Positions 1 through 39,938 of a stretch of 64,000 nt of DNA are shown piece by piece. Source of the stretch: a virus. The translations under genes and the position numbers were made by a program. Numbering within the stretch: the stretch's first letter is position 1; each line of letters begins with the position of its first letter. The stretch lies in the IMG/VR virus record IMGVR_UViG_3300023243_000009, positions 64,001 through 128,000 of that record; one strand, given 5' to 3'. The notes under the pieces are model-generated. The model searched no databases. It was not told where the DNA came from and saw nothing but the letters and a program-made list of their open reading frames with translations.

Positions 1-230
1 AATTGCTCTACTCGCCACGTTCGGTTTTTATGGTCTATCCATAGGCTTCTGCAATTTAATTGGTTTATTCTATCGCCGTAAATGTTTGTTACAAATCTAA
101 AACCTCTCTTTTGTGCTTCTTCAGCGTCAATGCTTATAAATAATTGTCTGTACTTATCACGCACTTCAAATAACAACGTATAAAAAAAATTGCTACTTTC
201 TCCATTTTTATAATCTAATTCTTTAAACAT
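1..230 (-). CDS. cassette-type small hypothetical protein (3' end beyond window)
   Basis: Read manually: ATG at 230, MFKELDYKNGESSNFFYTLLFEVRDKY..., open to position 1; starts inside the loop of attC-like site 1. Confidence 0.6.
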   Translation of the reverse strand, partial: MFKELDYKNGESSNFFYTLLFEVRDKYRQLFISIDAEEAQKRGFRFVTNIYGDRINQLNCRSLWIDHKNRTWRVEQ

Positions 231-297
231 AATTTATGATTTTATTTATTAATTTCACTATAATTAAACGCAACATTTCTTATACAATGCGTTGTAA
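168..297 (+). repeat. attC-like site 1 (130 bp)
   Basis: AAATAAC-AAC-GTATAAAAAAAATTGC ... GCAACATTTCTTATAC-AATGC-GTTGTAA: imperfect inverted repeat with AAC/GTT cores and asymmetric spacers. Confidence 0.75.
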
Positions 298-303
298 ACC
301 ATA

Positions 304-471
304 TTATTGTTTAGTTCCATCCATTAAATTACAAGCCTCGCATTGTCTTTGGCAAGTGCTTTCATAATGTGGGTTCTTGTGGTCATAACAATAAAACGAT
401 TCAACAACACCGTATATAAAGCATTTTTTCTTTACTTTCTTTTTACTAAACAACCTACTAATCAAACTCAT
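304..471 (-). CDS. 55-aa Cys-containing cassette ORF
   Basis: MSLISRLFSKKKVKKKCFIYGVVESFYCYDHKNPHYESTCQRQCEACNLMDGTKQ; starts in attC2 loop, stops 7 nt from attC1 core. Confidence 0.6.
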   Translation of the reverse strand: MSLISRLFSKKKVKKKCFIYGVVESFYCYDHKNPHYESTCQRQCEACNLMDGTKQ

Positions 472-539
472 TTTTTATCTATTAATTAGTTTTGTTGCTT
501 AATTCAAGGTCGCAACGTACCTTATACAATTCGTTGGTA
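402..539 (+). repeat. attC-like site 2 (138 bp)
   Basis: CAACAAC-ACC-GTATATAAAGC ... GCAACGTACCTTATAC-AATTC-GTTGGTA. Confidence 0.7.
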
Positions 540-551
540 GTTATTTTTTAT

Positions 552-698
552 TTATAGATAATTAAAGATTATTATTAATAATAAAAAGCCTATTAATAGT
601 AAAAAAGTAAATTTAATATCAAAAAAACAAATGCCAACATCTTTTATAACAAATTGCTTTTTATTTACTTTTTTACTAAATTGTTTATATTCTATCAT
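552..698 (-). CDS. 48-aa cassette ORF with C-terminal hydrophobic helix
   Basis: MIEYKQFSKKVNKKQFVIKDVGICFFDIKFTFLLLIGFLLLIIIFNYL; starts in attC3 loop. Confidence 0.55.
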   Translation of the reverse strand: MIEYKQFSKKVNKKQFVIKDVGICFFDIKFTFLLLIGFLLLIIIFNYL

Positions 699-761
699 TT
701 ATGTTATATTTATTTACTAATTATTAATTTACGCAAAATGCAATAAAAGGGTACGTTGTAA
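632..761 (+). repeat. attC-like site 3 (130 bp)
   Basis: TGCCAAC-AT-CTTTTATAACAAATTGC ... GCAAAATGCAATAAAAG-GGTAC-GTTGTAA. Confidence 0.7.
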
Positions 762-774
762 GTAATATTATTTA

Positions 775-1074
775 CTATCTTTTTGCTGCACTTGTAGAGC
801 TACTGCTTAACGCGCCTATACCTAATATAAATCCGAAGTCATACCAACCTCCGTTATTATTTACAGCATATATTGCTATATCGCTACTAAACAAACTACC
901 TATCCATGCAAATGGTGCAATCATTCCGTGCCAAAGTCCTCCCCAAAATCCATAAGGAGCAACTGTGGTACACGCTTCTATATTAGAGACATCGGCACAT
1001 CCCGTAAATAAGACTACAACCAACAACGTGTATAAAAAATACTTACTAATTCTGTTTAAATTTACTTTTTTCAT
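775..1074 (-). CDS. putative membrane lipoprotein, cassette-borne
   Basis: Basic N-terminus, hydrophobic stretch and lipobox-like LFTGC; Gly/aromatic-rich helices (GFWGGLWHG, GGWYDFGF); FLYTLL is encoded by the attC4 arm. Confidence 0.75.
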   Translation of the reverse strand: MKKVNLNRISKYFLYTLLVVVLFTGCADVSNIEACTTVAPYGFWGGLWHGMIAPFAWIGSLFSSDIAIYAVNNNGGWYDFGFILGIGALSSSSTSAAKR

Positions 1075-1149
1075 CTTTACTTATTTTAATTATTAATATT
1101 AAATTCTATTTATTTTTACTCGTACATTTTATACACAAATACGTTGGCA
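1021..1149 (+). repeat. attC-like site 4 (129 bp)
   Basis: CAACAAC-GTGTATAAAAAATAC ... GTACATTTTATACAC-AAATAC-GTTGGCA. Confidence 0.75.
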
Positions 1150-1183
1150 GTCATTATTGTAAAAAGGCCACATATATTACGGC

Positions 1184-1393
1184 CTATATCGTGTCTAAAT
1201 GATAACTAATTATTCTTTCTTTTATTTCTTTGTCAGACAATTCTTTTATGGATTGACAATTAAATATGTATTTTTTATTATCAAATAAATCAATTAAATT
1301 ATATTCTGCTGAATAAGTATAACTACCGTGATTAACAAAAATTCTAAAATTTTCATTATCATTATTGTGTTTTACTACTAGATTATTTATCAT
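1184..1393 (-). CDS. hypothetical protein
   Basis: 69-aa ORF on the coding strand, inside the largest cassette. Confidence 0.55.
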   Translation of the reverse strand: MINNLVVKHNNDNENFRIFVNHGSYTYSAEYNLIDLFDNKKYIFNCQSIKELSDKEIKERIISYHLDTI

Positions 1394-1450
1394 TTTTTTT
1401 TAATATATACTTATTTAAAATAGCTTTTAATTTTAATTTTTTTATTCATT

Positions 1451-1672
1451 TTATTTACCGCAATGCATTTCACAAAGACCATGTTTATTTTCAAATATAA
1501 CTCCTTTATTTGTTTTATTACAATCGTGTTCCACTATACAAGCAAACATATTAGTAGCTTCATTAGAAGCTCCTTGGTTTATCTTATTCCAAGGATGTTT
1601 AAATAACTCAATTTGGTTTTTACAATTACAACAGCATTCACCACTATGCCATCCTTTATCACATTTTATCAT
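1451..1672 (-). CDS. small Cys-rich protein
   Basis: CDKGWHSGECCCNC...C...C...C; possible metal binding. Confidence 0.65.
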   Translation of the reverse strand: MIKCDKGWHSGECCCNCKNQIELFKHPWNKINQGASNEATNMFACIVEHDCNKTNKGVIFENKHGLCEMHCGK

Positions 1673-1800
1673 TAGTTCTGGTTTTGTTTTTTATCAAAAA
1701 TATTTAGCATATCTATTAAGTAGTAGATGGTCATAATTAAAAAATACACCCAAAATATAGGGTTGGTTAAAATAAAAAACTTATCTCCGTTTGTGTTCAT
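1672..1800 (-). CDS. 42-aa single-TM protein
   Basis: MNTNGDKFFILTNPIFWVYFLIMTIYYLIDMLNIFDKKQNQN; TAATG stop/start overlap with the next ORF. Confidence 0.5.
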   Translation of the reverse strand: MNTNGDKFFILTNPIFWVYFLIMTIYYLIDMLNIFDKKQNQN

Positions 1801-1854
1801 ATATTATGTATTTTAATTTTAAATAAAATTAATGGGGTTTTATAAAATAACTGC

Positions 1855-1976
1855 AACCAACAGCGTGTATAATTTATTAACAAATTTACTAAATTAACAT
1901 CAATCTACCAAATCTATTTTTATAGTGTACTTTTATTAATCACATAGTTAACAAACTATACACGCATAAGTTATAT
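1855..1976 (+). repeat. attC-like site 5 (122 bp)
   Basis: AACCAAC-A-GCGTGTATAATTTATTAAC ... GTTAACAAACTATACACGC-ATAA-GTTATAT; best arm complementarity of the set. Confidence 0.75.
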
Positions 1977-1980
1977 GCAA

Positions 1981-2169
1981 TTAATCGGTGGTCTGTGTTA
2001 TTTTAACACCTCCTTGTATGCTGCCAAACGCACACCCTGCAAATAATAACCAATTCCATCCATATTCAAATGTTCCGTTTATAAAATCAACAATATGTAA
2101 TGCTAATCCTATTCCGCATACAAGAAGTAGCGTCATTCCCCAAATAAAAGTTCTTGTTTCTTTAGTCAT
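1981..2169 (-). CDS. small two-TM membrane protein
   Basis: Two hydrophobic segments in 62 aa. Confidence 0.65.
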   Translation of the reverse strand: MTKETRTFIWGMTLLLVCGIGLALHIVDFINGTFEYGWNWLLFAGCAFGSIQGGVKITQTTD

Positions 2170-2212
2170 TTTTATAAGTTTTATTTATTAATTAATATTT
2201 GTTTCTATTTAT

Positions 2213-2242
2213 ACGCTACTAGGCATACACAATGCTTTGTAA
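2213..2242 (+). repeat. degenerate attC-like right arm (site 6)
   Basis: ACGCTACTAGGCATACAC-AATGC-TTTGTAA: same as the site 1 right end but GTT changed to TTT; left arm eroded. Confidence 0.4.
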
Positions 2243-2246
2243 AAAA

Positions 2247-2390
2247 TTAAACCTTACTTACTGTTTTTTTAATAAAGTAATCGTATTGTCCTTTTAATTC
2301 TATTAATTCTTTAGAGGCTTGTCTTCTGCAAGCTTTCCTATAAGCTGGGTTTTCTTGCTCCCACCATTTAAATCCTGTAAATCCTTTCAT
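2247..2390 (-). CDS. 47-aa basic hypothetical protein
   Basis: MKGFTGFKWWEQENPAYRKACRRQASKELIELKGQYDYFIKKTVSKV. Confidence 0.5.
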   Translation of the reverse strand: MKGFTGFKWWEQENPAYRKACRRQASKELIELKGQYDYFIKKTVSKV

Positions 2391-2402
2391 CTGTTTAAAA
2401 TT

Positions 2403-2545
2403 TCACAACAACGCACAAAGAAAATAAACTACTTATCGCTTTCCGTTGTTTAGTTATTATTAATTTACGTTCTAATAAGTATAATCTAAATTTATATTTT
2501 ATTTTATAAATCATCGTTTACGTTTTTTATATATTCCTTAAAAGG
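2403..2545 (+). repeat. degenerate attC-like site 7
   Basis: TCACAAC-AAC-GCACAAAGAAAATAAAC ... GTTTACGTTTTTTATAT; GTT core lost. Confidence 0.35.
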
Positions 2546-2549
2546 TACT

Positions 2550-2969
2550 TTAACTACAATATTTAATAAAGTTATCCAGCAACCCTTTTATATTATCTGC
2601 ACCAACGGGGTTTGCGGAGTGTATAAATATCCTGGGTAATTTTTTCTGGTTGTCCATGCAATAATCTACTAACCATTGGGCACAATCCATTCCTGTTTTT
2701 TCCTTGTAACTCTCACCACGCCATTCTTGAAATTTTTTACTTTCATCATAATCTTCCCAAAAATATTCAGGTGTATAATGCTCATCCGCTAAATCGTGGT
2801 CGAAAGAAATAGCATCAGGTAACCCAAATATTCCAATCCATTTTACAAACTGTTCATAATTCAAAACCCAATTTATATTATAATCTCCACCATCCGCATC
2901 TGTTGGTACTTTACCTTCTTCATTTATAAAAGGGTTTCTAATATCGTCTAACCAAAGTAAGTTCTTCAT
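2550..2969 (-). CDS. cyclic-phosphate-processing receiver-like domain protein
   Basis: LWLDDIRNP, ISFDHDL, GMDCAQWL, IHSANPVGADNI motifs. Confidence 0.65.
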   Translation of the reverse strand: MKNLLWLDDIRNPFINEEGKVPTDADGGDYNINWVLNYEQFVKWIGIFGLPDAISFDHDLADEHYTPEYFWEDYDESKKFQEWRGESYKEKTGMDCAQWLVDYCMDNQKKLPRIFIHSANPVGADNIKGLLDNFIKYCS

Positions 2970-4992: not shown

Positions 4993-5634
4993 TTACATTC
5001 GACTAATATATTGGTTAGTACTATCTTCGTCATCATCCCCCAATCCTAATTCCTTTAAACGTTGTAAGTGATATTCATCCATTTCAAAATTAACAGCGTC
5101 TGTAGTATTATTTAAAGGTGTGTGGGATTCTATTTGTTTTTCATCAATAGCGTTAAAAACATCCCCAACATATAAAAAGTAATGGTTATAACATAGTAAT
5201 TCAATATTATTCTGGTTATAGTTATTCCCGTTTTTATCTTTAAAGTGTAATAAAAGTGGAACTCTATAATCTAATACTCTACGTTCACTGAATTTGCATA
5301 TTGAACATTCTTCTTCCAGATATCCTTCTTCAATTAAACGATATTTGATTTTAGAGGGATTAAAATGTGAAGGAGATATCTTACCTTCTATTATATCTAA
5401 TAACGCAGGATCTTTCTTACCATTATTTAAAAACTTAGGTATGCCTTTTCCACTTTGGTTTTTATGTTGGTCAAATAGATTTTCATAACCCTCCTTAGTA
5501 GCTTCATAATTTTTAGCATGTCTTTTATAATGTTGATATGAAACATGAAGGTAGCGGGCGCTAGCCATATTAGATTTTGTTTTAGCCATTGCTGCTAAAA
5601 TTTGAGTCTTACTTAAAGGTTTGGGTTGTGGCAT
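4993..5634 (-). CDS. HNH-like zinc-binding protein with N-terminal HTH-like region
   Basis: CSIC ... LHFKD ... NIELLCYNH. Confidence 0.6.
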   Translation of the reverse strand: MPQPKPLSKTQILAAMAKTKSNMASARYLHVSYQHYKRHAKNYEATKEGYENLFDQHKNQSGKGIPKFLNNGKKDPALLDIIEGKISPSHFNPSKIKYRLIEEGYLEEECSICKFSERRVLDYRVPLLLHFKDKNGNNYNQNNIELLCYNHYFLYVGDVFNAIDEKQIESHTPLNNTTDAVNFEMDEYHLQRLKELGLGDDDEDSTNQYISRM

Positions 5635-14872: not shown

Positions 14873-16495
<1,623 letters not shown>

Positions 16496-25835: not shown

Positions 25836-25869
25836 ATACATTTATTTGAGATATTGGATAAAATTATTG

Positions 25870-25942
25870 TGGTCCGTATAGGAATCGAACCTATGACCTT
25901 TTCGTTATGAGCGAACTTCTCTACCAGCTGAGATAACGGACC
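25870..25942 (-). tRNA. tRNA-Met/Ile2 (CAT)
   Basis: GGTCCGT acceptor, loop CTCATAA, T-arm ATAGG-TTCGATT-CCTAT. Confidence 0.85.
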
Positions 25943-26005
25943 TTGCCTTTTTTAGAGTTTTTAGGATAGAACTCAAGGACAGAACGACCTGTAAAACTAT
26001 TTAGA

Positions 26006-26074
26006 AGCGGATTGAGGACTCGAACCTCGCCTCAGGGTTATGAGCCCTACATGCTGCCAATTACACCAAACCGC
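26006..26074 (-). tRNA. tRNA-Met (CAT)
   Basis: TAGGG-CTCATAA-CCCTG, TTCGAGT T-loop. Confidence 0.75.
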
Positions 26075-26078
26075 AATT

Positions 26079-26153
26079 TGGCGGTCTATGAGGGTTTCGA
26101 TCCCTCTACTCTACCGTGACAGGGTAGCATGATAGCCAGTTCACAAATAGACC
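26079..26153 (-). tRNA. tRNA-Asp (GTC), CCA encoded
   Basis: CTACC-CTGTCAC-GGTAG. Confidence 0.9.
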
Positions 26154-26369
26154 GGTTTTGCTTAGTGAGATTACTAAGCTAGATTTTAACGGTTTTATTT
26201 CCTTTCAAACAAACTCATAAGTGTCTTACCACATGAAACAAAGTCAAATTACTGGGAGACTCTATTACCCGTCTTTATTCCTCAGAGAGCGGCGTTAAGG
26301 ATGTCCACTCTAGTACCCCCATTTTGTTTATAGACTCCATGGATGTCTGTAAGTATCTCTTACTTATTG

Positions 26370-26442
26370 TGGAGTAGATGGGACTCGAACCCACATACTT
26401 TACCTTGCAAAGGTACTGCTAAGCCAATTTAGCTACAACCCC
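26370..26442 (-). tRNA. tRNA-Ala (TGC)
   Basis: GGGGTTG with G3-U70; loop TTTGCAA. Confidence 0.9.
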
Positions 26443-26615
26443 AATTAATTAAAAACTCTTTGTCCAAATTTCAGTTATGGAATTACGCTCCTTTGTTTCA
26501 GAGAGTAGATAACCTCTACAATAAACACAACTGCTGATACAGCTTACATATTACTTGAGGTATTTTACAAGTCTGAATACTATTGTTTATCTTCAAGCAA
26601 AGAATTTTTAATTTG

Positions 26616-26687
26616 TATTCCTGGAGGGTATCGATCCCTCTACTCTACCGTGAAAGGGTAGTGACTTAGCCAGTTGTCGACAGGAAC
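26616..26687 (-). tRNA. tRNA-Glu (TTC)
   Basis: CTACC-CTTTCAC-GGTAG. Confidence 0.88.
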
Positions 26688-26693
26688 ATTCAG

Positions 26694-26775
26694 CGGAAGA
26701 GATAGGATTCGAACCTACAAAGCTTTTACACCCGACTGTTTTCAAGACAGCTTAACAACCATTGTCCACTCTTCC
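26694..26775 (-). tRNA. tRNA-Ser (TGA)
   Basis: CTGT-CTTGAAA-ACAG, long variable arm. Confidence 0.88.
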
Positions 26776-26954
26776 AATTGTAACTTTTAGAACACCTTAG
26801 AGTTACCAACTAATTCGACAAAACGATTCGAATGGCATCCGCGCCCATCTGTTTAACAATCCAATACTCGAAAGATATTGAGGTTTAATATTAAACAGAC
26901 CCGTCATCCGTGTGCTTCGTTCCCTATCCTATGCATCGGAATCAGGCCGTTTTG

Positions 26955-27026
26955 AGCGAATAGAGAGAATCGAACTCTCGTCCTCTGGTTGGAAGCCAGA
27001 TGTAATAGCCATTATACTACATTCGC
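26955..27026 (-). tRNA. tRNA-Gly (TCC)
   Basis: GCGAATG acceptor, TCTGG-CTTCCAA-CCAGA, U73. Confidence 0.9.
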
Positions 27027-27233
27027 GTAATAATTAAATTTTTTGTACTCAATGTACATCATAACTGTTGTTGTGTAAACAGTGAGTTAAGTTTTTATAA
27101 TATTACCATGTGTGCACTAGTAATAAATTGTTCTTTACTTAACCTCTACTCTCCCTAGTTTCTATTTCGAAATTCACCTAGCTATCTGAGATTTATATAC
27201 CAGGGGATCATACCCTAGTCTTCATTTAATTTG

Positions 27234-27305
27234 AGCCTCCACAAGGAATCGAACCCTGTTAATCCGGGTACAAACCGGGTACATTACCATTTATGCTTTG
27301 GAGGC
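27234..27305 (-). tRNA. tRNA-Thr (TGT)
   Basis: CCGG-TTTGTAC-CCGG, acceptor GCCTCCA/TGGAGGC. Confidence 0.8.
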
Positions 27306-27729
27306 AAATATAAGAGAGGTTCGGGTCTTTCGAGGTTTCTAGAAATATCTGGGACTGGAGATAAACCTTTATCTTATTCCAGCTTGTCCTAGCTTCACTT
27401 ACTCTCTTAATATTATAAGTTAGAATGGTTGTTTGAATCCCTTTTCAGTTCACCCTTGAACGTCTAACTTTATATTTTACTTCTAATTCTACCCAATACT
27501 TCTGTATGGACTAGTATCTAAACTTTTAACGCGTATTAATTATTTAGCGTAGTTATTAAATAAGTTTTCTCTTATCAGCAGGGCCGGCATATCTTCCTTG
27601 GTTGTTTATACCTTGGTTTCAAATCCTTAGCTTACTTTAATAACAATCAGAAGCTCTTTATCCTTACGGTCCCGTAGTTTTGGCTGCATACCAACTCCAC
27701 AGTTAGGCCAGGGCTTTAAAGAGATTTTG

Positions 27730-27882
27730 TAGTCCTAGTTGGAATCGAACCAACCTTTGATAAGTTACTTACTCTAATGCTTTAACTTTCTCTTCAAACT
27801 AGTATAAGAAGTGTTAAACCAAAAGCCGTAACGTTACCCCACTAGTAAGAGTAGGGGCGACCTACTACTACATATAGGACTA
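27730..27882 (-). ncRNA. 153-nt tRNA-like RNA (acceptor and T-arm intact, large structured interior)
   Basis: TAGTCCT/AGGACTA 7-bp acceptor; GTTGG-TTCGATT-CCAAC; no canonical D or anticodon arm. Confidence 0.65.
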
Positions 27883-27893
27883 TTTTAATTTTG

Positions 27894-27997
27894 TAGCTAT
27901 GTTAGGATTTGAACCTAATCCGGCTTTACAATACTAAGTGAACTTATCGTTAAACTTAACCTTGGAGAGGTGCTATCAACCAATGATCTCACAGCTA
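27894..27997 (-). ncRNA. 104-nt atypical tRNA-like RNA with oversized variable region
   Basis: TAGCTGT/ATAGCTA, D-like ATTGGTT loop, ambiguous CTCCAA loop, about 38-nt extra arm, TTAGG-TTCAAAT-CCTAA. Confidence 0.55.
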
Positions 27998-28190
27998 TAT
28001 TTTTTGCACTAACAGTAACTAGCTTATCCTTTTAAATCTGTTAATACTTCGGAATCTAACCGCTCATATCTCAAGTCCAGCGTAAGGACTAATGCTTATA
28101 TGTTCTTGATATGCAACCTTCTAGGTATAAAGTTCCCACCACTTCACATCTAGAGTAATAAGTCGTAGATGCTACTCGAGAAGTTTTTTG

Positions 28191-28272
28191 TACGTTTGGA
28201 GAGATTCGAACTCTCACACCTTAAGGCACTAGATTCTAAATCTAGCATGTCTACCAATTCCAACACAAACGC
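28191..28272 (-). tRNA. tRNA-Leu (TAG)
   Basis: CTAGA-TTTAGAA-TCTAG, variable arm. Confidence 0.88.
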
Positions 28273-28274
28273 AA

Positions 28275-28303
28275 TTTAATCTTATCCAATTATGTCAATG
28301 ATC
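28275..28303 (-). promoter_or_regulatory. boxA-like leader of a tRNA sub-operon
   Basis: GATCATTGACATAATTGGATAAGATTAAA directly before tRNA-Leu; second copy at 32170-32196. Confidence 0.55.
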
Positions 28304-28314
28304 TTTTATTAATC

Positions 28315-28515
28315 TTAAAACCTAAGTTTTAATGTTTTTAATTCGCTTTCGATACGAATTATATTCTTATCAGTTAAGGGAATTTGTTTTTTTGTTTCCT
28401 TACAAGTTTTTGTTCCAGATTTTAATTGATCTGATAATCTTGAATAAACTGTTCTTCTTCTATCTTTTGCTGATAATAGCATACTATGTGAAACTCCATT
28501 ACTCTTTGATGACAT
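28315..28515 (-). CDS. small basic hypothetical protein
   Basis: 66 aa, downstream of a promoter repeat. Confidence 0.6.
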   Translation of the reverse strand: MSSKSNGVSHSMLLSAKDRRRTVYSRLSDQLKSGTKTCKETKKQIPLTDKNIIRIESELKTLKLRF

Positions 28516-28545
28516 AACTTCTCGGTTTTTATATTTATTACTTAT

Positions 28546-28581
28546 ACGTGAATATACGAAACATACCCCACGTATCCTAAT
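28546..28581. repeat. 36-bp direct repeat copy 1 (promoter)
   Basis: ACGTGAATATACGAAACATACCCCACGTATCCTAAT. Confidence 0.9.
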
Positions 28582-28808
28582 TATTCTTTAATTATTTTTA
28601 CAATATCATGATCAGTTTCTGGTATTCTATTTTTTAGAAATACAAACCCATCATGTGTTCTTGTTCCTTGACCTAATCCTTTATCTAAATAACCTACAAC
28701 ATGATCTAGATATTCAGTATCAGTTGTTGGTCTCAAATACATTAACTTAGCACCGTGTGAACTGATTAAAATATCACCTTTTTTACAATTTCTTAAATCT
28801 ACGCTCAT
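28581..28808 (-). CDS. hypothetical protein flanked by direct repeats
   Basis: 75 aa; stop codon abuts repeat copy 1. Confidence 0.7.
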   Translation of the reverse strand: MSVDLRNCKKGDILISSHGAKLMYLRPTTDTEYLDHVVGYLDKGLGQGTRTHDGFVFLKNRIPETDHDIVKIIKE

Positions 28809-28844
28809 AACCTTTATTGTTTTTAATGTTCGAACCTTACGAAC

Positions 28845-28880
28845 ACGTGAAGATACGAAACATACCCCACGTATCCTAAT
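28845..28880. repeat. 36-bp direct repeat copy 2 (promoter)
   Basis: ACGTGAAGATACGAAACATACCCCACGTATCCTAAT (35/36 identical to copy 1). Confidence 0.9.
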
Positions 28881-28910
28881 ATTTTTGCAATTACTGTTTA
28901 ATTGCTTTTG

Positions 28911-28984
28911 AGAGTGAGACAGGAATCGAACCCGTTAAAAATTGGTTTTGCAAACCAACTGCCCAACCATGAACATCCCACTCT
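28911..28984 (-). tRNA. tRNA-Cys (GCA)
   Basis: TTGG-TTTGCAAA-ACCAA region, anticodon GCA. Confidence 0.8.
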
Positions 28985-28986
28985 TT

Positions 28987-29496
28987 TTACATACCTAAAT
29001 ATGGTTTCCATTCATCCGGGATAAATGTTGTCTTTTTTAATAACATCAAATAATGCGGCCTTTGGGGTTTTGGTATTGGTTTACCATATTCCTTTAAAGT
29101 TAAATCCGCTTTTTCATTGTTACATCTTTTACAAGCAGTAACTAAATTATCCCATTTATTAGGCCCACCTTTAGATTGAGGTATAACGTGATCTAACGTT
29201 AGAGTCTTGCGGTTTTCACAACCACAATACACACACTCATACCCATCTCTTTTGAATATATTCTCACGTGTTAGAGGTACTTTATGAAAATTCATCTTCA
29301 CATAAGTGTGTACTCTAATAATAGAGGGTTTAAAGATTGTTAATTCTGGGTTTACTACACCAAATGTTTCTGGGTATTCCGTTACTACATCAGCATTTCC
29401 CTTATATGAGATTACGAATGCCCTTTCTGTAGTAATAATACTCCTAGCAATATAACTAGTGTCAATTACTAAGGTTTTGTCATAACGGTTTTTCAT
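28987..29496 (-). CDS. HNH endonuclease (McrA-like)
   Basis: RENIFKRDGYECVYC, TLDHVIPQSKGG, NLVTACKRCNNEK. Confidence 0.92.
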   Translation of the reverse strand: MKNRYDKTLVIDTSYIARSIITTERAFVISYKGNADVVTEYPETFGVVNPELTIFKPSIIRVHTYVKMNFHKVPLTRENIFKRDGYECVYCGCENRKTLTLDHVIPQSKGGPNKWDNLVTACKRCNNEKADLTLKEYGKPIPKPQRPHYLMLLKKTTFIPDEWKPYLGM

Positions 29497-29506
29497 GATT
29501 AAATAA

Positions 29507-29686
29507 CTATGGTTTATATTGTGTGTTTCTAAACGTTTTCCAATTTATCTCTTTACGTTTATTCCTACCATTACATCCACTATTGGGACCACATAATGGA
29601 CACCCTAATACTTGTCCGGAGTGGTACATTTTGTACGTACGAGAATTGGTTGTTGTTTGTTGAAATTTTTTTACTTTTTTTAACAT
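29507..29686 (-). CDS. 59-aa basic Cys-containing protein
   Basis: MLKKVKKFQQTTTNSRTYKMYHSGQVLGCPLCGPNSGCNGRNKRKEINWKRFRNTQYKP, read manually. Confidence 0.6.
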   Translation of the reverse strand: MLKKVKKFQQTTTNSRTYKMYHSGQVLGCPLCGPNSGCNGRNKRKEINWKTFRNTQYKP

Positions 29687-29760
29687 GTTTGCTCTGTTTT
29701 TAGGTTAATTTACCTAAAGAGCATCGAATTTTTTTTTCATTTTTAAATTATTTAATTTTG

Positions 29761-29829
29761 CACGCCATCAAAGAATCGAACTCTGTCCTACGGGGTTGGA
29801 ATCCGTTTGGTTACCATAACCTATGACGC
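29761..29829 (-). tRNA. tRNA-Trp (CCA)
   Basis: ACGG(A)-TTCCAAC-(C)CCGT, G73. Confidence 0.7.
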
Positions 29830-29899
29830 ATATAGAAAAACTGTTCAGATTCAATCCTGCCGAAGCTGTCCAGATTGGGGATCCTGTTTTTCTATTTTG

Positions 29900-29972
29900 A
29901 ACCCCTGCCCAGATTCAAACTGGGATTGGAAGGATAGAAGCCTACTGTTTTATTCAGTTAAACTACAAGGGC
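29900..29972 (-). tRNA. tRNA-Arg (TCT)
   Basis: AGG-CTTCTAT-CCT. Confidence 0.75.
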
Positions 29973-29979
29973 ATTAATG

Positions 29980-30052
29980 AATTCCCGGAGAGATTCGAAC
30001 TCTCAATCTCTCGATTCGTATTCGAGGGCATTGCCATTTATGCTACGGAAAT
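29980..30052 (-). tRNA. tRNA-Arg (ACG)
   Basis: CTCGA-ATACGAA-TCGAG. Confidence 0.85.
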
Positions 30053-30074
30053 ATTTGGAGGTTTTTCCTTATTG

Positions 30075-30154
30075 TACCCGTGATAGGATTCGAACCTACA
30101 AGCCGAAGCAATCGCGTTTAAGACGACCATGTTTTCCAATTTCATCACACGGGC
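30075..30154 (-). tRNA. tRNA-Leu (TAA)
   Basis: GTCGT-CTTAAAC-GCGAT, variable arm GC-TTCG-GC. Confidence 0.85.
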
Positions 30155-30253
30155 ATAAAGCCAACCCCGTAGGTTAGCAGGACATCTTTAGGTAATGTCT
30201 TTGCAAGAATTTTCATCTCTGACCAATTCGATCACCCTTTGGGCGTCAATAGG

Positions 30254-30327
30254 GGTGTAAGGTGGGTTTCGATCCCACTACCCTTCGGATCACAACCGAA
30301 CGCTCTTCCGATTGAGCTACAAACACC
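30254..30327 (-). tRNA. tRNA-His (GTG)
   Basis: TTCGG-TTGTGAT-CCGAA, G-1:C73. Confidence 0.85.
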
Positions 30328-30428
30328 ATATTTGTAAGGCTCCCACTTTCCTTACTTGTTAGTCTAAAGTTTTATCTTTGCAGAAGCAGGTGACTAAATT
30401 ATCCTTTAACCCGAGTGGTTTTAAATAG

Positions 30429-30500
30429 TATCAATAGATAGGATTGAACCATCGACCTGTTCCATATGAAAGAACCGCTCTACCACTGAGCTATATTGAT
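30429..30500 (-). tRNA. tRNA-Met/Ile2 (CAT)
   Basis: ATCAATA/TATTGAT, GTTCT-TTCATAT-GGAAC. Confidence 0.75.
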
Positions 30501-30506
30501 GTTTTG

Positions 30507-30592
30507 AGGAAGAAATCGGAATCGAACCGAATGCCTTTTACAGCACGATTATCTTAGCAGGATACCCTAATCACCATCATAGTTTATCTTCC
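30507..30592 (-). tRNA. tRNA-Ser (GCT)
   Basis: TATC-CTGCTAA-GATA, long variable arm. Confidence 0.88.
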
Positions 30593-30597
30593 TTTTG

Positions 30598-30670
30598 TCG
30601 AAGTGGTAGGTTACGATCCTACTACCTTTGTCGTATCAGGACAATGCTCTACCAATTGAGCTACACTCCG
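30598..30670 (-). tRNA. tRNA-Ile (GAT)
   Basis: TTGTC-CTGATAC-GACAA. Confidence 0.88.
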
Positions 30671-30676
30671 GAATTG

Positions 30677-30750
30677 CTCCTCAGGTAGGGTTCGAACCTA
30701 CTACCTACGCATTAACAGTGCGCCGCTCTAACCAGATGAGCTACTGAGGA
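30677..30750 (-). tRNA. tRNA-Asn (GTT)
   Basis: TCCTCAG acceptor, GCGCA-CTGTTAA-TGCGT. Confidence 0.92.
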
Positions 30751-30757
30751 ATTTTTA

Positions 30758-30838
30758 GTTACGATTAAAGGACTCGAACCTTCATTGGACATATCTGCCG
30801 CTACTGCTCATGAGACAGTCAACGCACCTGCATCGTAA
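30758..30838 (-). tRNA. atypical CAT-anticodon tRNA-like gene (reduced D-arm, long variable arm)
   Basis: TTACGAT/ATCGTAA; ACTGT-CTCATGA-GCAGT; GAAGG-TTCGAGT-CCTTT. Confidence 0.55.
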
Positions 30839-30843
30839 TGTAA

Positions 30844-30919
30844 TGGTGGTACTGATTGGTATCGAACCAACTACACCTAGATTTTCAGTCTAGTGCTCTA
30901 CCGTTTGAGCTACAGTACC
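30844..30919 (-). tRNA. tRNA-Phe (GAA), CCA encoded
   Basis: CTAGA-CTGAAAA-TCTAG. Confidence 0.93.
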
Positions 30920-31006
30920 AAATAAGAATGTGGTGGGACCCGATGTAATTTAACCACACCCTTTATACATTGTCCTAGGTTGTATAAAGGTACATCTTCA
31001 CTATCG

Positions 31007-31087
31007 TGGGCGATGGTGGACTCGAACCACTCCCTTTCGGACGGAATTTACAGTCCCGCTGTCGTATCCGAACGACTTTCAACCCCC
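31007..31087 (-). tRNA. tRNA-Tyr (GTA) with extended D-stem
   Basis: CGGGA-CTGTAAA-TTCCG; D-arm GTCGT-TCGGAT-ACGAC. Confidence 0.75.
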
Positions 31088-31162
31088 ATTTTCTAATCTT
31101 AAAATAATCTTTACCAAGACTTTTACACCTTGTTTTATTTCTAACGTTTAAAACTAGAATTA

Positions 31163-31234
31163 GTTAACGTACAAGAATCGAACTTGCTTCTCCCGGCTCA
31201 TTGCCGGGCGTGGTCACCATTCCACTAACGCCAA
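31163..31234 (-). tRNA. atypical tRNA, anticodon ATG (His-like, C73, A33)
   Basis: TTGGCGT/ACGTTAA; GTGG/CCAC D-stem; CCCGG-CAATGAG-CCGGG. Confidence 0.55.
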
Positions 31235-31333
31235 AAACTATAATTAATTGGAACTACAATTCCTAACCTCTATAGAGTAGTCTGTGTTTAGATCACTATT
31301 GTAGTAATGATTCTCTTCACCCAACTATTTTTG

Positions 31334-31404
31334 TACCTCCTGATGGAATCGAACCATCGCACTTTGCATGTAAAACAAATACGCTACCATTACGTCAAAG
31401 AGGT
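31334..31404 (-). tRNA. tRNA-Val (TAC)
   Basis: TTTGT-TTTACAT-GCAAA. Confidence 0.85.
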
Positions 31405-31417
31405 AAGTTTAATTTTT

Positions 31418-31482
31418 TAGTTATGATAGGATTCGAACCTATATCTTGCGGACCGCCATGTTAACCGTTACACCACACAACC
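31418..31482 (-). ncRNA. 65-nt tRNA-like RNA with a miniature anticodon arm
   Basis: GGTTGTG/CATAACT; D- and T-arms normal; anticodon arm only GCG-GTC-CGC. Confidence 0.6.
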
Positions 31483-31514
31483 CCGGAAATTAATAACCTC
31501 AACTTGCAAATTTG

Positions 31515-31586
31515 TACCCCTGTTAGGAGTCGAACCTAACCCCACTGTTTAAAAGACAGTTGCCTACACCGGTTTGCTACAGGGAT
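31515..31586 (-). tRNA. tRNA-Lys (TTT)
   Basis: ACTGT-CTTTTAA-ACAGT. Confidence 0.88.
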
Positions 31587-31782
31587 AGAAGTAAATAAAA
31601 GATTGGTGTATCAATAACCTCCATTTAAATGTTTTGATATCATTACATTTAAACCTGTTTCACAGTTACCCCTTTGGCTAAGAGAGCTTATTATGATATT
31701 AAGCTTAATCTTTTATTAAAACTATTGCGGACTCTTTTCGAACTTTGCGGGCTCGTATCATTCCTTCTTTTGATAGTTTTTG

Positions 31783-31854
31783 TCGGGTAGACAGGAGTCG
31801 AACCTGCCGCCTCTCGCTTCCAAAGCGAGCTTCTCACCTCGAGAATACTACCCG
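31783..31854 (-). tRNA. tRNA-Pro (TGG)
   Basis: CGGGTAG/CTACCCG, CTCGC-TTTGGAA-GCGAG. Confidence 0.88.
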
Positions 31855-31921
31855 AATTAATCTACTTTTAGCCTGGTTATTTTAGCTAAGCCTTTTAGCC
31901 AGGTTATTTTGTAAATTATTG

Positions 31922-31993
31922 TTGGTCTGGAGAGAATCGAACTCCCATTAATTGAGTCAAAGTCAAATGTAATAACCGTTATACCACAGACCA
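31922..31993 (-). tRNA. tRNA-Gln (TTG)
   Basis: TGGTCTG/CAGACCA, TTGA-CTTTGAC-TCAA. Confidence 0.88.
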
Positions 31994-32081
31994 ATAATGT
32001 AAGAGTTGGGCTCTTACTACCTCAATTAAGCATATCAGCTGGACCATTATGCCAGCGTTCGAATCAGAATTGATAGTTTTG

Positions 32082-32168
32082 AAGAAGGTGTGGGATTCGA
32101 ACCCACGGATCTTTTACAATCACTAGTTTTCAAGACTAGCACAATAAGCCAGACTCTGTCAACCTTCC
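32082..32168 (-). tRNA. tRNA-Ser (TGA), second copy
   Basis: CTAGT-CTTGAAA-ACTAG, long variable arm. Confidence 0.9.
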
Positions 32169-37931: not shown

Positions 37932-38804
37932 CTACTTGTTATGTTGTGCAAGTATTTGTTTTACGTGTGCTTCTGCCACTTCGTAAGATACTGGTCCTGT
38001 TTCATCTGCATAACTCGCAGGATCAGGACGTCCTAATTTGATAAAGGCTTCGATACGTTCTACTGAACTTGCTGATTTGTAATCTGAGTACCATTCTCCC
38101 TTCATAGAATTGTCATTACCATCAACTGAACCTATAAAAATTGGTTTATATGAAGTAAGTGTTCTTTTATAAACCTCGTCGAAGGTTATTCCAAATTCTT
38201 CACATAATATTTCTCCATCTTGTAATATTGTAAATTTATTACCTTTAATATAGGGTGTAAAATAACCTACTCTATCTGCATCCCAATTTCCTTCTCTAAA
38301 GGCTTTATCGTCTGCATCTCTAAACTCTTGTCGGCAATCAGGATAAACTTCGAAATCTCCAGCATGAATCCCCATAGCGATATCACAATTTTCCCCTGTT
38401 CTATTTGCTATTGATAAGGCAACCGCTTGTGTAATAGAAGCAAATATTTTATTACGATTAGGAACAACTGTTTCTTTCATGTTGTCGTTTTCATAATGCC
38501 CTTCAGGTACATCATTACCTCCTTCTACTAATGCTGAATCCAATAAATCTGATAAACCATCTAATTTAATTTGACGGTAAGTGATTTGATGGTATGTAAA
38601 AGTATTTGGATGTTCTGATTCCCCATGTCTGTTTAGATATCTTACTAATGATTTAGCTCTATCTAATTCTACTCTGTGTTTTTGACCATAATCGAAGCTG
38701 ATGGCGGTACAAGTGTCGTAATCTTTTAATGCTCTTAATAATAATGTGCTACTGTCCATTCCACCTGAGAGACTAACCACACAATGTTTTTTTGTTTTAC
38801 TCAT
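37932..38804 (-). CDS. queC: 7-cyano-7-deazaguanine synthase
   Basis: SLSGGMDS, FDYGQKH, VVPNRN, GIHAGD..VYPDCR. Confidence 0.93.
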   Translation of the reverse strand: MSKTKKHCVVSLSGGMDSSTLLLRALKDYDTCTAISFDYGQKHRVELDRAKSLVRYLNRHGESEHPNTFTYHQITYRQIKLDGLSDLLDSALVEGGNDVPEGHYENDNMKETVVPNRNKIFASITQAVALSIANRTGENCDIAMGIHAGDFEVYPDCRQEFRDADDKAFREGNWDADRVGYFTPYIKGNKFTILQDGEILCEEFGITFDEVYKRTLTSYKPIFIGSVDGNDNSMKGEWYSDYKSASSVERIEAFIKLGRPDPASYADETGPVSYEVAEAHVKQILAQHNK

Positions 38805-38858
38805 TTTATTTAATTTAATTTATTGCCAGGTATTAAAAGCGTATAGGCAAACGCTATT

Positions 38859-39938
38859 TTACAATTGATAATCTTGTAGATCACCTGTAGAAGGTTCTAC
38901 TTCGGATTGTTCATATACTCTATTCCCAAAATAATCGTCTAAAAATTCTCTACGATATAAGTGGACATTTCCTTTATATTTTGGATTTTCAATAGCCCTT
39001 TCCTGAATTGTTTCTTTTAATTGTACTGCTACAATACAAACCTCTTTTCCTAATTCACTACCTGCGGCTTTTCCTAGGTAATCATAAAGTGACATCATAT
39101 CGGATGAATCATTTTTTTTTGTACTCATGATTGTTTTTATATTTAAATTATTAATTTCTCTGAATTTATTTACATTATATCCAACTCTAGAAATACCAAT
39201 TTCATCCAACTCCATATCAAAGTAGTTATTGATATTTGCGGTTGGTTTAGTGTTTAAACCATAACTTTTGTATTCAACCCCTTCTAAAGCTGACATTACG
39301 GGGTTTGAGGTGTCAATGGATTCTATTTGAGGGTGGTTATCATACCAACCAAATTCTTGTGGTATTGAACAACCCAATAAATGTAACTTAATATCTTTTA
39401 AATGGCGTAAATTTAGTAAACCTTGTACAAATCGTACTCTACCCAATGCCTTTCCCATATCCGCGTTACTATGTGGGAAAAAATCATTATACCAAGTAGC
39501 ACCGTAAGATACACATAATTTTTCATATCCTAATTCCCTTAACAATCCAGCACACAGATATGCGTCATTTTTATCCTTACCTTGGATTACTGCTATTTTC
39601 TTGGTTTTTTTAGGGAATTTAAACTGTTTCCAATACTTGGCCTGTGCCGCGGTTTGATGACAATCCATCCAAACATCAGGTACTATGAATTCATCTGGTT
39701 CTAATTCTTTAACCCAAAAAAGTAAACGACTATGGTCATAACCGTGCCCCCCGTTTTCATCTTTAAGTTCATGTAAGGAATTATCCATAATAACATACCT
39801 CCCTTTAGCTTTTGCTTCTTTAAAATATTTTAAATATTCTTTATCTTGGTCCAATAAATGGGGTAAGCAAAAATCATACTCATTAAACTCAGGAGAAATA
39901 TTGAGTAGGAATTTTGGCACTTCGTGGTTTACTATCAT
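38859..39938 (-). CDS. TGT-fold deazaguanine transglycosylase-like protein (DpdA-like)
   Basis: IMDNS, VPDVW.D, AVIQG, LHLLG, SIDTS; directly upstream of queC. Confidence 0.65.
   Translation of the reverse strand: MIVNHEVPKFLLNISPEFNEYDFCLPHLLDQDKEYLKYFKEAKAKGRYVIMDNSLHELKDENGGHGYDHSRLLFWVKELEPDEFIVPDVWMDCHQTAAQAKYWKQFKFPKKTKKIAVIQGKDKNDAYLCAGLLRELGYEKLCVSYGATWYNDFFPHSNADMGKALGRVRFVQGLLNLRHLKDIKLHLLGCSIPQEFGWYDNHPQIESIDTSNPVMSALEGVEYKSYGLNTKPTANINNYFDMELDEIGISRVGYNVNKFREINNLNIKTIMSTKKNDSSDMMSLYDYLGKAAGSELGKEVCIVAVQLKETIQERAIENPKYKGNVHLYRREFLDDYFGNRVYEQSEVEPSTGDLQDYQL

Follow-up and report, generated by a model that had tools for sequence, protein, structure and literature searches.

A probable integrase-less cluster of attC-type sites in a flavobacterial phage, of the same family as recombinase-linked cassette arrays of Flavobacteriaceae

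Integrons are the textbook system of gene capture and reshuffling, and are regarded as bacterial and as tied to the integrase IntI. To our knowledge, they are also regarded as almost absent from Bacteroidota. A survey with IntegronFinder reported no such arrays in Flavobacteriia (PMC9024848). An earlier sequence-only reading of the DNA described here treated integrons as elements of chromosomes and plasmids, a view that is out of date, since clusters of attC sites without an integrase have been published from virulent phages of marine bacteria, including Polaribacter phage P12002L (Qi 2023, PMC9892861). One short site in P12002L, with the layout described below, was called by HattCI, and sites of this phage were tested with IntI1, with P12002L_attC1 not being recombined (PMC9892861). 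A second system of relevance is rAID-1, outlined as a XerD-family tyrosine recombinase that heads co-directional, low-GC orphan genes with integron-like repeats (10.1101/471110).

The window analysed was a stretch of 64,000 nucleotides (positions 64,001 to 128,000 of the virus record IMGVR_UViG_3300023243_000009). The host lineage is marine flavobacteria and the phage is of the lytic type, with a genome of ~139 kb; the designation 'jumbo' had to be dropped, as the record is 138,667 bp long with an estimated completeness of 85%. We scanned the whole record with R1, a covariance model built from viral copies only, and found a sole co-oriented array of 12-13 hairpin sites of ~135 nt, all in the same orientation and contained within 4.4 kb (genome 62.2-66.5 kb), which extends ~2.1 kb leftward beyond the left edge of the window (Table 1). 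Exact scans of viral contigs with 14-16-nt motifs gave mostly single matches due to chance, and a gapped two-arm pattern was required. The five inverted repeats of the sequence-only reading were recovered at their positions on the minus strand (54-86 bits), and its unit lengths of 242, 222, 388 and 827 bp were exact (GTT cores at 291, 533, 755, 1143 and 1970), as were its counts of 1, 1, 1 and 3 ORFs per unit, with every ORF on the minus strand.

Table 1. Features of the array and its surroundings, in window coordinates unless marked as genome coordinates.
Feature	Position (strand)	R1 score (bits)	Remarks
attC-like site 1	166..301 (-)	86.1	ATG (230) of 79-aa ORF in variable loop; terminal stem recovered by MFE fold; folding 'bottom' strand is the minus strand
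attC-like site 2	400..543 (-)	57.4	Contains ATG (471) of 55-aa ORF
attC-like site 3	630..765 (-)	72.1	Contains ATG (698) of 48-aa ORF; inner stem is the covarying variant CTTTTAT/ATAAAAG
attC-like site 4	1016..1153 (-)	79.7	Contains ATG (1074) of 99-aa lipoprotein-like ORF; part of signal peptide encoded by 3' arm
attC-like site 5	1853..1980 (-)	54.4	Inverted repeat I3; non-coding, before three-ORF cassette; best fold among the sites
Degenerate site 6	2115..2231 (-)	28.3	Model positions 17-126; mutated core CAAAG, 3' arm unclear; homologue better preserved in contig L014
Degenerate site	2401..2541 (-)	28.0	First in array by transcription direction; 5' core missing; 3' arm and loop related to site at genome 62202-62340
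Six further sites, left of window	genome 62202-63988		Detected with R1
Cassette ORF, 79 aa	1..230 (-)		Continues 9 nt beyond window edge
Cassette ORF, 55 aa	304..471 (-)		Cys-rich
Cassette ORF, 48 aa	552..698 (-)		Hydrophobic
Cassette ORF, 99 aa	775..1074 (-)		Lipoprotein-type signal peptide (…LFTGC)
827-bp cassette	1184..1800 (-)		Three ORFs: 69 aa, 73 aa (Cys/His-rich), 42 aa
Two small ORFs	1981..2390 (-)		Behind degenerate sites; 62 aa (membrane-like), 47 aa
cREC_REC domain protein, 139 aa	2550..2969 (-)		Just upstream of array; PF20274, 72 bits

The cargo of the array consists of ORFans and membrane or lipoproteins, and DNA methyltransferases are among the cargo in a cultured relative. Pfam searches gave no match for the 99-aa ORF, which has homologues in phages phi17:2 and phi4:1, or for the two ORFs of the three-ORF cassette that were searched. 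Cellulophaga phage Nekkels_1 has a CDS with 83% DNA identity to the 79-aa ORF, the homology ending at the core of the next site. The cREC_REC gene upstream of the array is a mobile single gene, present in 9 viral contigs that are otherwise unrelated, and flanking synteny based on it is therefore uninformative. In contig L287, a hairpin site lies directly upstream of this gene.

The proposed layout of the sites, with an AAC core, a short spacer and an arm followed by the second arm, a longer spacer and a GTT core, was as described. Each site forms an imperfect hairpin with a 4-bp base ([C/T]AAC:GTT[G/A]), a stem of 17-25 bp and a variable tip; read along the minus (folding) strand, the order is [C/T]AAC, 5 unpaired nt, the two strands of the stem, 2 unpaired nt and GTT[G/A], making the unpaired spacer asymmetric. 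Outer core positions vary, and the R/Y pattern of RYYYAAC / GTTRRRY is not strictly followed. The usual length of attC sites is about 57-141 nt. R1 matched 181 co-oriented sites in 64 viral contigs, with lengths of 58-215 nt, and some of these exceed the usual length because ORFs sit in the tip.

Compensatory changes were present in 13 of the 19 consensus pairs, and two G.T pairs are near-invariant. The minus ('U to D') strand was the more stable one in 37 of 40 sites (mean -26.9 vs -19.6 kcal/mol), in agreement with the enrichment of G:T pairs described in attC bottom strands (PMC5027507). Invertible promoters were rejected as candidates, since arm covariation and the G.T bias are unlike what is seen in protein-only inverted repeats. 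When the five sites in the window were folded singly as DNA, four were no better than their shuffles (z +0.9 to -0.7) and only site 5 reached a z of -3.4; the case for structure therefore rests on covariation across the family. The bottom-strand fold expected from the sequence-only reading was thus recovered in the strand bias and covariation of the family, but not in the energies calculated for four of the five individual sites in the window. Such single-site z-scores are uninformative for A/T-rich sites. Judged by predicted folding, the four window sites with A/T-rich tips may be poor substrates for recombination.

It had also been noticed that core bases pair better across a cassette than within a site. 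This pairing was real and stronger than first seen, spanning 8-13 nt, with 10/10 matches for D62578/U62337 followed by 9/10, 10/12, 9/10 and 13/14 (the last with a bulge). Among 107 non-redundant viral site pairs it greatly exceeded chance, as matches to the next site amounted to 4.58/8, compared to 2.74/8 within the own site and 2.77/8 at random, and matches of at least 6/8 were seen in 40% vs 3.6%. An independent second detector gave the same result. The register shift was present in both viral and bacterial arrays, in that bases outside the AAC/GTT cores are complementary across the cassette and not within the site, and the proposed recombination scar therefore holds statistically in both. 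From the sequences, these data support the reading that the register-shifted cores would be the footprint of a crossover in the AAC/GTT core. If integrons are a guide (PMC5027507), the folded strand would be the bottom strand, presumably cut between the A and C of the 5'-arm AAC. A minus-strand cassette would then comprise C, the remaining hairpin, the gene or genes and ...AA, so that the outer bases would pair across the cassette and not within a site, and the footprint would mark a circle once closed on its own hairpin. Strand exchange would probably take place on folded single strands.

The same family of sites was found at more than 120 loci in Flavobacteriaceae genomes, and R1 gave 176 hits in 36 of those. 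The chromosomal arrays found in this family of bacteria held from 21 to at least 143 sites each, and in five of five genomes the array began 1-5 kb from a gene for a Xer/IntI-like tyrosine recombinase of 373-408 aa, with a constant relative orientation of recombinase and array in all five. The linked recombinase scored 211 bits against TIGR02249 (cut-off 265), which it matches in two stretches, with no match to model positions ~182-238; among solved structures, XerA (4a8e, 5hxy) is its best relative, and IntI4 (2a3v) aligns in two stretches. The IntI-specific segment is absent from these array-linked enzymes, and 'integron-like' is therefore the apt term, rather than 'integron'. Within the 138.7-kb phage record (~85% complete), recombinases of the tyrosine or serine type were not found, nor was a Y1 transposase. 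Thus, the search for an IntI-type recombinase suggested earlier yielded a neighbouring Xer/IntI-like enzyme in the bacterial arrays, although one without the IntI-specific segment, and none in the phage. Comparison of the phage array with ~120 bacterial loci (tblastx, blastn), a small sample of bacterial arrays, revealed no shared cassette genes and no protein homology between cassettes; only one site of the phage array showed 72-82% identity to bacterial sites.

The abundance of the family in chromosomes of the host lineage, together with a hairpin of conserved ends, could also be expected of selfish host elements of the REP/REPIN or MITE kind that have spread into the spaces between phage genes. 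This origin is extremely improbable, because the sites are not scattered but, in bacteria, stand close together in one-directional arrays next to a tyrosine recombinase, the interiors of copies from a single genome vary widely, and the flanks are complementary across genes and not across an insert. REP/RAYT elements were rejected for the absence of a Y1 (RAYT/IS200-type) transposase from the record; MITEs were rejected too.

Viral contigs proved to be mosaic at the scale of whole cassettes, with breakpoints at the core. The 475-bp cassette at genome 61862-62336 is 99.4% identical to a segment of another contig (L113) that has unrelated neighbours on either side; the match starts within 7 nt of the AAC core of a site (TGCCAAC) and stops exactly after the ...ACAAC of the next one. 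Other breakpoints lie on the opposite arm (immediately after GATGTTG at genome 62578), and one hairpin recurs at 99% identity behind unlike genes, which indicates either exchange beyond one crossover point or an added contribution of homologous recombination. A syntenic contig (L252) has ~680 bp in a hypervariable slot where G000 has 5.2 kb, and in both the slot ends at a shared site, [T/C]AAC followed at the boundary by G and a GC hairpin. With respect to the attI site and Pc promoter that stand at the head of classical integron arrays, the end of the present array, outside the window at genome ~61.86 kb, is marked by an orphan core (...ACAAC, then G after the boundary) with a GC-rich hairpin and a TATAAT-like box, and this element is conserved in L252, where the array is absent. 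Decayed cassettes of site plus gene were present in Nekkels_1 and phi17:2, the copy in the latter Cellulophaga phage being that of site 4 and its gene.

Breakpoints on both arms, and the location of the array within a hypervariable block of small ORFs, are also compatible with PeSL-like regulatory cassettes, i.e. conserved modules of promoter and terminator that separate early genes and whose mosaicism arises by homologous recombination as in T4-type phages, for which there is precedent (PMC2839356, PMC4122927). An A/T-rich motif of the AATAAATAAA type does occur in the loops, upstream of the ATGs, and PeSLs likewise are repeated intergenic modules that bring about the exchange of small genes in the hyperplastic regions of large phages and can yield minicircles. 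However, PeSLs join a strong early promoter of the sigma70 type to a terminator stem-loop and are driven by homology, without a dedicated recombinase, register-shifted cores or a bacterial counterpart. Here, the conserved parts are the base and stem of the hairpin and not promoter hexamers, no T-run follows, and the family is confined to one array of this genome while filling bacterial arrays beside recombinases. Moreover, homologous exchange does not create variable inverted repeats flanking each gene, and we consider this explanation very unlikely. A promoter or operator in the 5' arm was rejected separately, as a by-eye comparison with the -33/-7 consensus of Bacteroidetes showed the wrong spacing, and only a single array of the genome holds the motif.

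We then considered the orientation of genes relative to the sites. In viral arrays, the stable strand is the coding strand (ORF sums of 40,970 vs 10,968 aa), whereas in bacterial arrays it is antisense to the genes (39,654 vs 6,151 aa). The bottom strand carries the ORFs in this phage as well as at 17 of 20 viral loci; they lie downstream of the site and frequently begin within it. Since the stable strand of phage sites is the coding strand, the site lies upstream of its gene and often supplies the start codon, which is found in the loop 50-77 nt past the 5' arm, with an arm-to-arm spacing of 116-132 nt. This tight spacing, the position of the start codons and the fact that the hairpin, with G.U pairs, would exist in the mRNA would suit hairpins that are mainly RNA elements of early transcripts, serving as a leader or as a processing or stability site, with the cassette footprint a relic. 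The antisense position of the stable strand in bacteria indicates that the strand bias tracks the recombination site and not transcription, and an RNA element was dropped on this ground as the main reading of the bias. Further, such a role leaves the cross-cassette complementarity and the link to a recombinase unexplained, and an Rfam search with the sites gave no match, making it an unlikely primary function. The sites may have an added RNA role in phages, and in phage cassettes, with the gene on the bottom strand, the A/T-rich tip would supply a leader and often the start codon. Start codons inside a recombination site are unusual, and it may be asked how a single sequence can act in recombination, in transcription and as coding DNA at the same time.

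As its sites belong to the same family as host arrays that adjoin a recombinase, the region is best read as a virus-borne, integrase-less integron-like array. Taken together, these results make it very likely that window positions 1-2545, with ~2.1 kb to their left, are an integrase-less cluster of 12-13 attC-type sites in a ~139-kb flavobacterial phage, belonging to a Xer-run integron-like cassette system of Bacteroidota. Provided that the sites count as attC-type, at least two stand in a row here with no integrase nearby. The earlier suggestion of a phage cassette array is supported by this kinship and by shared cassettes, while the shuffling in the phage that it envisaged is inferential; the integration of circular cassettes agrees with the register shift and the breakpoints at cores. 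Two complete phage genomes (L251, 70 kb; L271, 45 kb) carry sites along with their own Xer-type recombinase. In the present phage, the array may still be active; because the record has no recombinase, present-day shuffling would need an enzyme in trans, which could come from the array-linked recombinase of the host or from a co-infecting phage of a kind with a 266-aa Xer-type enzyme encoded at the end of its array.

More tentatively, flavobacterial phages may maintain an integron variant of their own, where the site is inverted, sits upstream and moves with its gene as a leader and start-codon module whose stable strand is also present in mRNA, using Xer-type chemistry as in the arrays of their hosts. 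Host and phage pools would then share one platform, and a phage without the enzyme would borrow it in infection. A well-formed cassette array in a lytic-type marine flavobacterial phage, and arrays of up to at least 143 cassettes with a simpler Xer-type recombinase in the host lineage, provide a concrete and testable route by which phages could exchange small accessory genes with one another, and possibly with hosts, and bear on the origin of integrons from Xer-like systems.

The site family, its bacterial arrays, the Xer-type enzyme and the inverted gene orientation go beyond the published work on phage attC sites (PMC9892861). In P12002L, where classical attC models predicted two sites (PMC9892861), we found 8 members of the present family. 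The GenBank copy of P12002L (L295) and the contig L285 share a site, which scored 112 bits in L285; the published P12002L_attC1 has the same layout and is not scored by R1, so that its membership is assigned by layout. The arrays resemble integrons, most of all sedentary chromosomal integrons and CALINs, in being one-directional arrays of short cassettes, with imperfect hairpins of 58-215 nt that combine AAC/GTT cores with an unpaired spacer and a tip that varies, in a bottom strand stabilised by G:T pairs and in core boxes complementary across the cassette; the bacterial arrays alone also share the placement of the ORF, on the top strand and before its site (PMC5027507). They differ from integrons in an outer box consensus that does not strictly follow GTTRRRY, in the 5-nt vs 2-nt spacer and in a linked recombinase without the IntI-specific segment. 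In addition, phage genes have the reverse orientation and often begin within the site, unlike the promoterless ORFs of integrons, which lie on the top strand upstream of attC. By its description, rAID-1 comes from gut Bacteroidales, another order, and not from phages (Ross et al. 2019). Its architecture is nevertheless that of the flavobacterial arrays and of the phages L251 and L271, with the present record having the sites only. The closest known systems, by description, are not classical integrons but the rAID-1/Xer-type arrays of Bacteroidota.

The five inverted repeats that the sequence-only reading had listed near the left end of the window were all present, and the unit lengths it gave from GTT to GTT (242, 222, 388 and 827 bp) were exact. 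Every gene in the array region lies on the minus strand. Read on that strand, the 5' arm of a repeat consists of xxx[C/T]AAC, a G, ~5 unpaired nucleotides and a TTGTATA-type stem; the interior is A/T-rich and 60-100 nt long, and the 3' arm consists of a TATAC-type stem, ~2 unpaired nucleotides and GTT[G/A]xxx. Spacing from the 5' arm to the 3' core stays within a narrow range in the array (116-132 nt). The array continues past the window edge with 6 further sites, and its terminus is an orphan core.

Coordinates of the sites, cassettes and genes discussed in the text
Feature	Sequence	Position	Strand
Site 1	window	166-301	-
Site 2	window	400-543	-
Site 3	window	630-765	-
Site 4	window	1016-1153	-
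Site 5	window	1853-1980	-
Six further sites	phage genome	62202-63988	
Orphan core	phage genome	~61.86 kb	
Block shared with L113	phage genome	61862-62336	
cREC_REC gene	window	2550-2969	-
213-aa protein	window	4993-5634	-
GroEL-like chaperonin	window	14873-16495	-
tRNA cluster	window	25869-32168	-
In-frame TAG region	L113	~3860-3740	-
Cassette, ORF in bacterial orientation	L251	7489-8139	
Xer-type recombinase, 266 aa	L251	8588-9388	+
Small Xer-type recombinase	L271	11405-12196	+
gp54 and flanking sites	L295 (NC_028924, P12002L)	38035-38936	
Bacterial array	G001 (NZ_CP138992)	1898170-2032418	

A gapped two-arm pattern search located copies of the element in 63 viral contigs; their lengths peaked at 120-124 nt. 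Alignment of 42 copies gave a 19-pair consensus hairpin with two near-invariant G.T pairs and compensatory double changes in 13 of the 19 pairs; 37 of 40 copies were more stable on the minus-sense strand. Covariation inside single sites is visible in the inner stems, with the variants GTATAA/TTATAC, CTTTTA/TAAAAG, GGCTAT/ATAGCC and GTGCAT/ATGCAC. Only one of the five window sites outperformed shuffled DNA when folded by itself, the other four being held back by interiors that are rich in A/T and in part coding, and the evidence for the predicted hairpin is comparative. We trained a covariance model (R1) on the viral copies alone. It detected 12-13 sites in the phage record, on one strand and all within a single array, and 181 co-oriented sites of 58-215 nt in 64 viral loci, with a maximum of 17 per 12 kb. 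A search of Rfam with the element found nothing similar.

According to the key claim of the sequence-only reading, the flanks of the cores match across a cassette and not within a site. This was borne out over more bases than had been noted: cross-cassette matches in this genome are 8-13 nt long, as in GTTGGCAGTA against TACTGCCAAC (10/10), and an 'empty' cassette of 24 nt in the array is closed by a 9-bp stem. The changeover from complementarity within a site to complementarity across the cassette is located at the conserved core, and a crossover inside this core would leave exactly such a switch.

Core-flank matches within one site (own), across a cassette (next) and at random, scored out of 8
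Loci	Detection	Site pairs	Next	Own	Random	Pairs with >=6/8
Viral	R1 matches	107	4.58	2.74	2.77	40% vs 3.6% random
Viral	independent detector	149	4.12	2.50	2.59	31% vs 1.8% random
Bacterial	independent detector	228	4.84	2.65	2.46	54% vs 2.7% random

Scanning bacterial genomes gave more than 120 loci, every one from Flavobacteriaceae and allies, in genera including Polaribacter, Winogradskyella, Psychroserpens, Algibacter, Tenacibaculum, Dokdonia, Zobellia and Cellulophaga, and R1 revealed dense one-directional arrays in these loci. Counted at E <= 1e-6, Polaribacter sp. R77954 (G001) has 143 or more sites in a stretch of 132 kb, and the other four genomes (G002-G005) carry 55, 46, 29 and 21. 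In 5/5 genomes examined, the array starts 1-5 kb from a tyrosine recombinase of 373-408 aa, in constant relative orientation. Against the NCBIfam 'XerA/integron integrase' model this enzyme scores 224 bits, above the cut-off of 220. Against the integron-integrase model it reaches 211 bits and misses the cut-off of 265, since it lacks the central IntI-specific part; among solved structures, archaeal XerA proteins are its closest relatives.

In the bacterial arrays, most ORF length is on the strand complementary to the stable hairpin (39,654 vs 6,151 aa), indicating that the stable strand is the 'bottom' strand in integron terms. Integron integrases are known to cut the bottom strand between A and C of the 5'-arm AAC, and this strand is favoured by G:T mispairs (PMC5027507). 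In contrast, ORFs of the viral loci lie on the stable strand (40,970 vs 10,968 aa), so that the site precedes its gene; in one cassette of the viral contig L251, the ORF is oriented as in bacteria. Most cassettes of this phage array have an ATG 50-77 nt into the site. ORFs starting inside a site continue across the 3' arm in one or the other of two reading frames, and in one cassette part of a lipoprotein signal peptide is specified by this arm, while other site copies are wholly non-coding or carry a short upstream ORF. As the phage ORFs share the folded strand, the mRNA would hold the hairpin, and a putative additional regulatory role at the mRNA level is possible.

One block of the array is shared with the viral contig L113 at 99.4% identity, with copies also in L242 and L276. 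The homology starts at most 7 nt from the core of one site and ends exactly after the ...ACAAC of the next, with unrelated flanking cassettes on both sides. Judged by these limits, the block is the cassette that a bottom-strand crossover between AA and C would be expected to produce, site first and then gene. A second shared block (96% identity) ends on the other arm, after GATGTTG, implying that exchange is not limited to one point, or that homologous events occur too. L113 also contains an in-frame TAG between a 40-aa ORF and a zinc-ribbon-like ORF without its own start codon; the TAG is at the same position in the copy of our phage, and could represent a nonsense mutation or read-through.

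The contig L252 is syntenic on both sides of the array, with ~680 bp there as against 5.2 kb in this phage. The two share an end that falls between [T/C]AAC and a G, followed by a GC-rich hairpin and a TATAAT-like box, which may be a candidate docking site. The Cellulophaga phages Nekkels_1 and phi17:2 retain decayed 'site + gene' units. Two site-bearing contigs, L251 (70 kb) and L271 (45 kb), are complete phage genomes with terminal repeats. In L251, a gap of ~80 nt separates the last cassette ORF from the start of the Xer-type tyrosine recombinase gene that follows it, and the related gene of L271 lies a few kb downstream of the sites.

The IMG/VR record that carries our array is linear, and the window covers its bases 64001-128000. 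The record has genes for a DNA polymerase, for a DnaB-type helicase, for a tape-measure protein, for a GroEL-like chaperonin (phrog_5725, 520 bits) and for 25 tRNAs, and Cellulophaga phages are its closest DNA matches; it is a large flavobacterial phage. In its 138,667 bp, estimated to be 85% complete, neither a tyrosine nor a serine recombinase was found, nor a Y1 transposase, and at this size the phage is large, not 'jumbo' as first described. The 25 tRNAs are clustered on a single strand and coincide with a local rise in G+C. A 213-aa protein with clustered cysteines and an HNH-like tail (…LLCYNHYF) shows 74% amino acid conservation in the syntenic L252 and had no Pfam match. A 139-aa cREC_REC (PF20274) domain protein is encoded by the lone gene common to 9 otherwise unrelated viral contigs, and a hairpin site lies directly upstream of this gene in 3 overlapping loci (L287, L292, L294).

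The interpretation of the region as an integron-like cassette array in a phage is supported in substance. No integrase accompanies the array in this record, and on sequence evidence it arose through crossover at the AAC core of folded sites that also make up the arrays of the host lineage. It is not a classical integron.

Integrons had been seen in the initial reading as features of chromosomes and plasmids; attC clusters of phages, however, were already published, and Qi et al. 2023 described them in virulent phages, Polaribacter phage P12002L among them (PMC9892861). P12002L contains 8 sites of the present family, several of which flank DNA methyltransferase and HNH genes. Its DNA methyltransferase gp54 lies between two short (56-58 nt) family members whose outer boxes match across the gene (8/10), and the IMG/VR-derived L285 has an identical copy of a P12002L site, which scored 112 bits in cmsearch. 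The published P12002L_attC1 has the same layout as the present family and gave no score with R1; IntI1 recombination was not obtained with it (PMC9892861). Published surveys regard Bacteroidota as almost without integrons, and for Bacteroidetes that made with IntegronFinder 2 lists nothing beyond In0 elements and a single Salinibacter integron (PMC9024848); the present site family appears to escape current integron models. The rAID-1 element of gut Bacteroidales, with an XerD-family recombinase, co-directional low-GC genes and integron-like repeats (10.1101/471110), matches the flavobacterial arrays in architecture when compared by its published description only. PeSL modules, known from T4-type phages, have an analogous function and work by homologous recombination (PMC2839356, PMC4122927). 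New relative to this literature are the size and spread of the site family, the Xer-type enzyme linked to it, and the inverted arrangement in phages with the start codon in the site.
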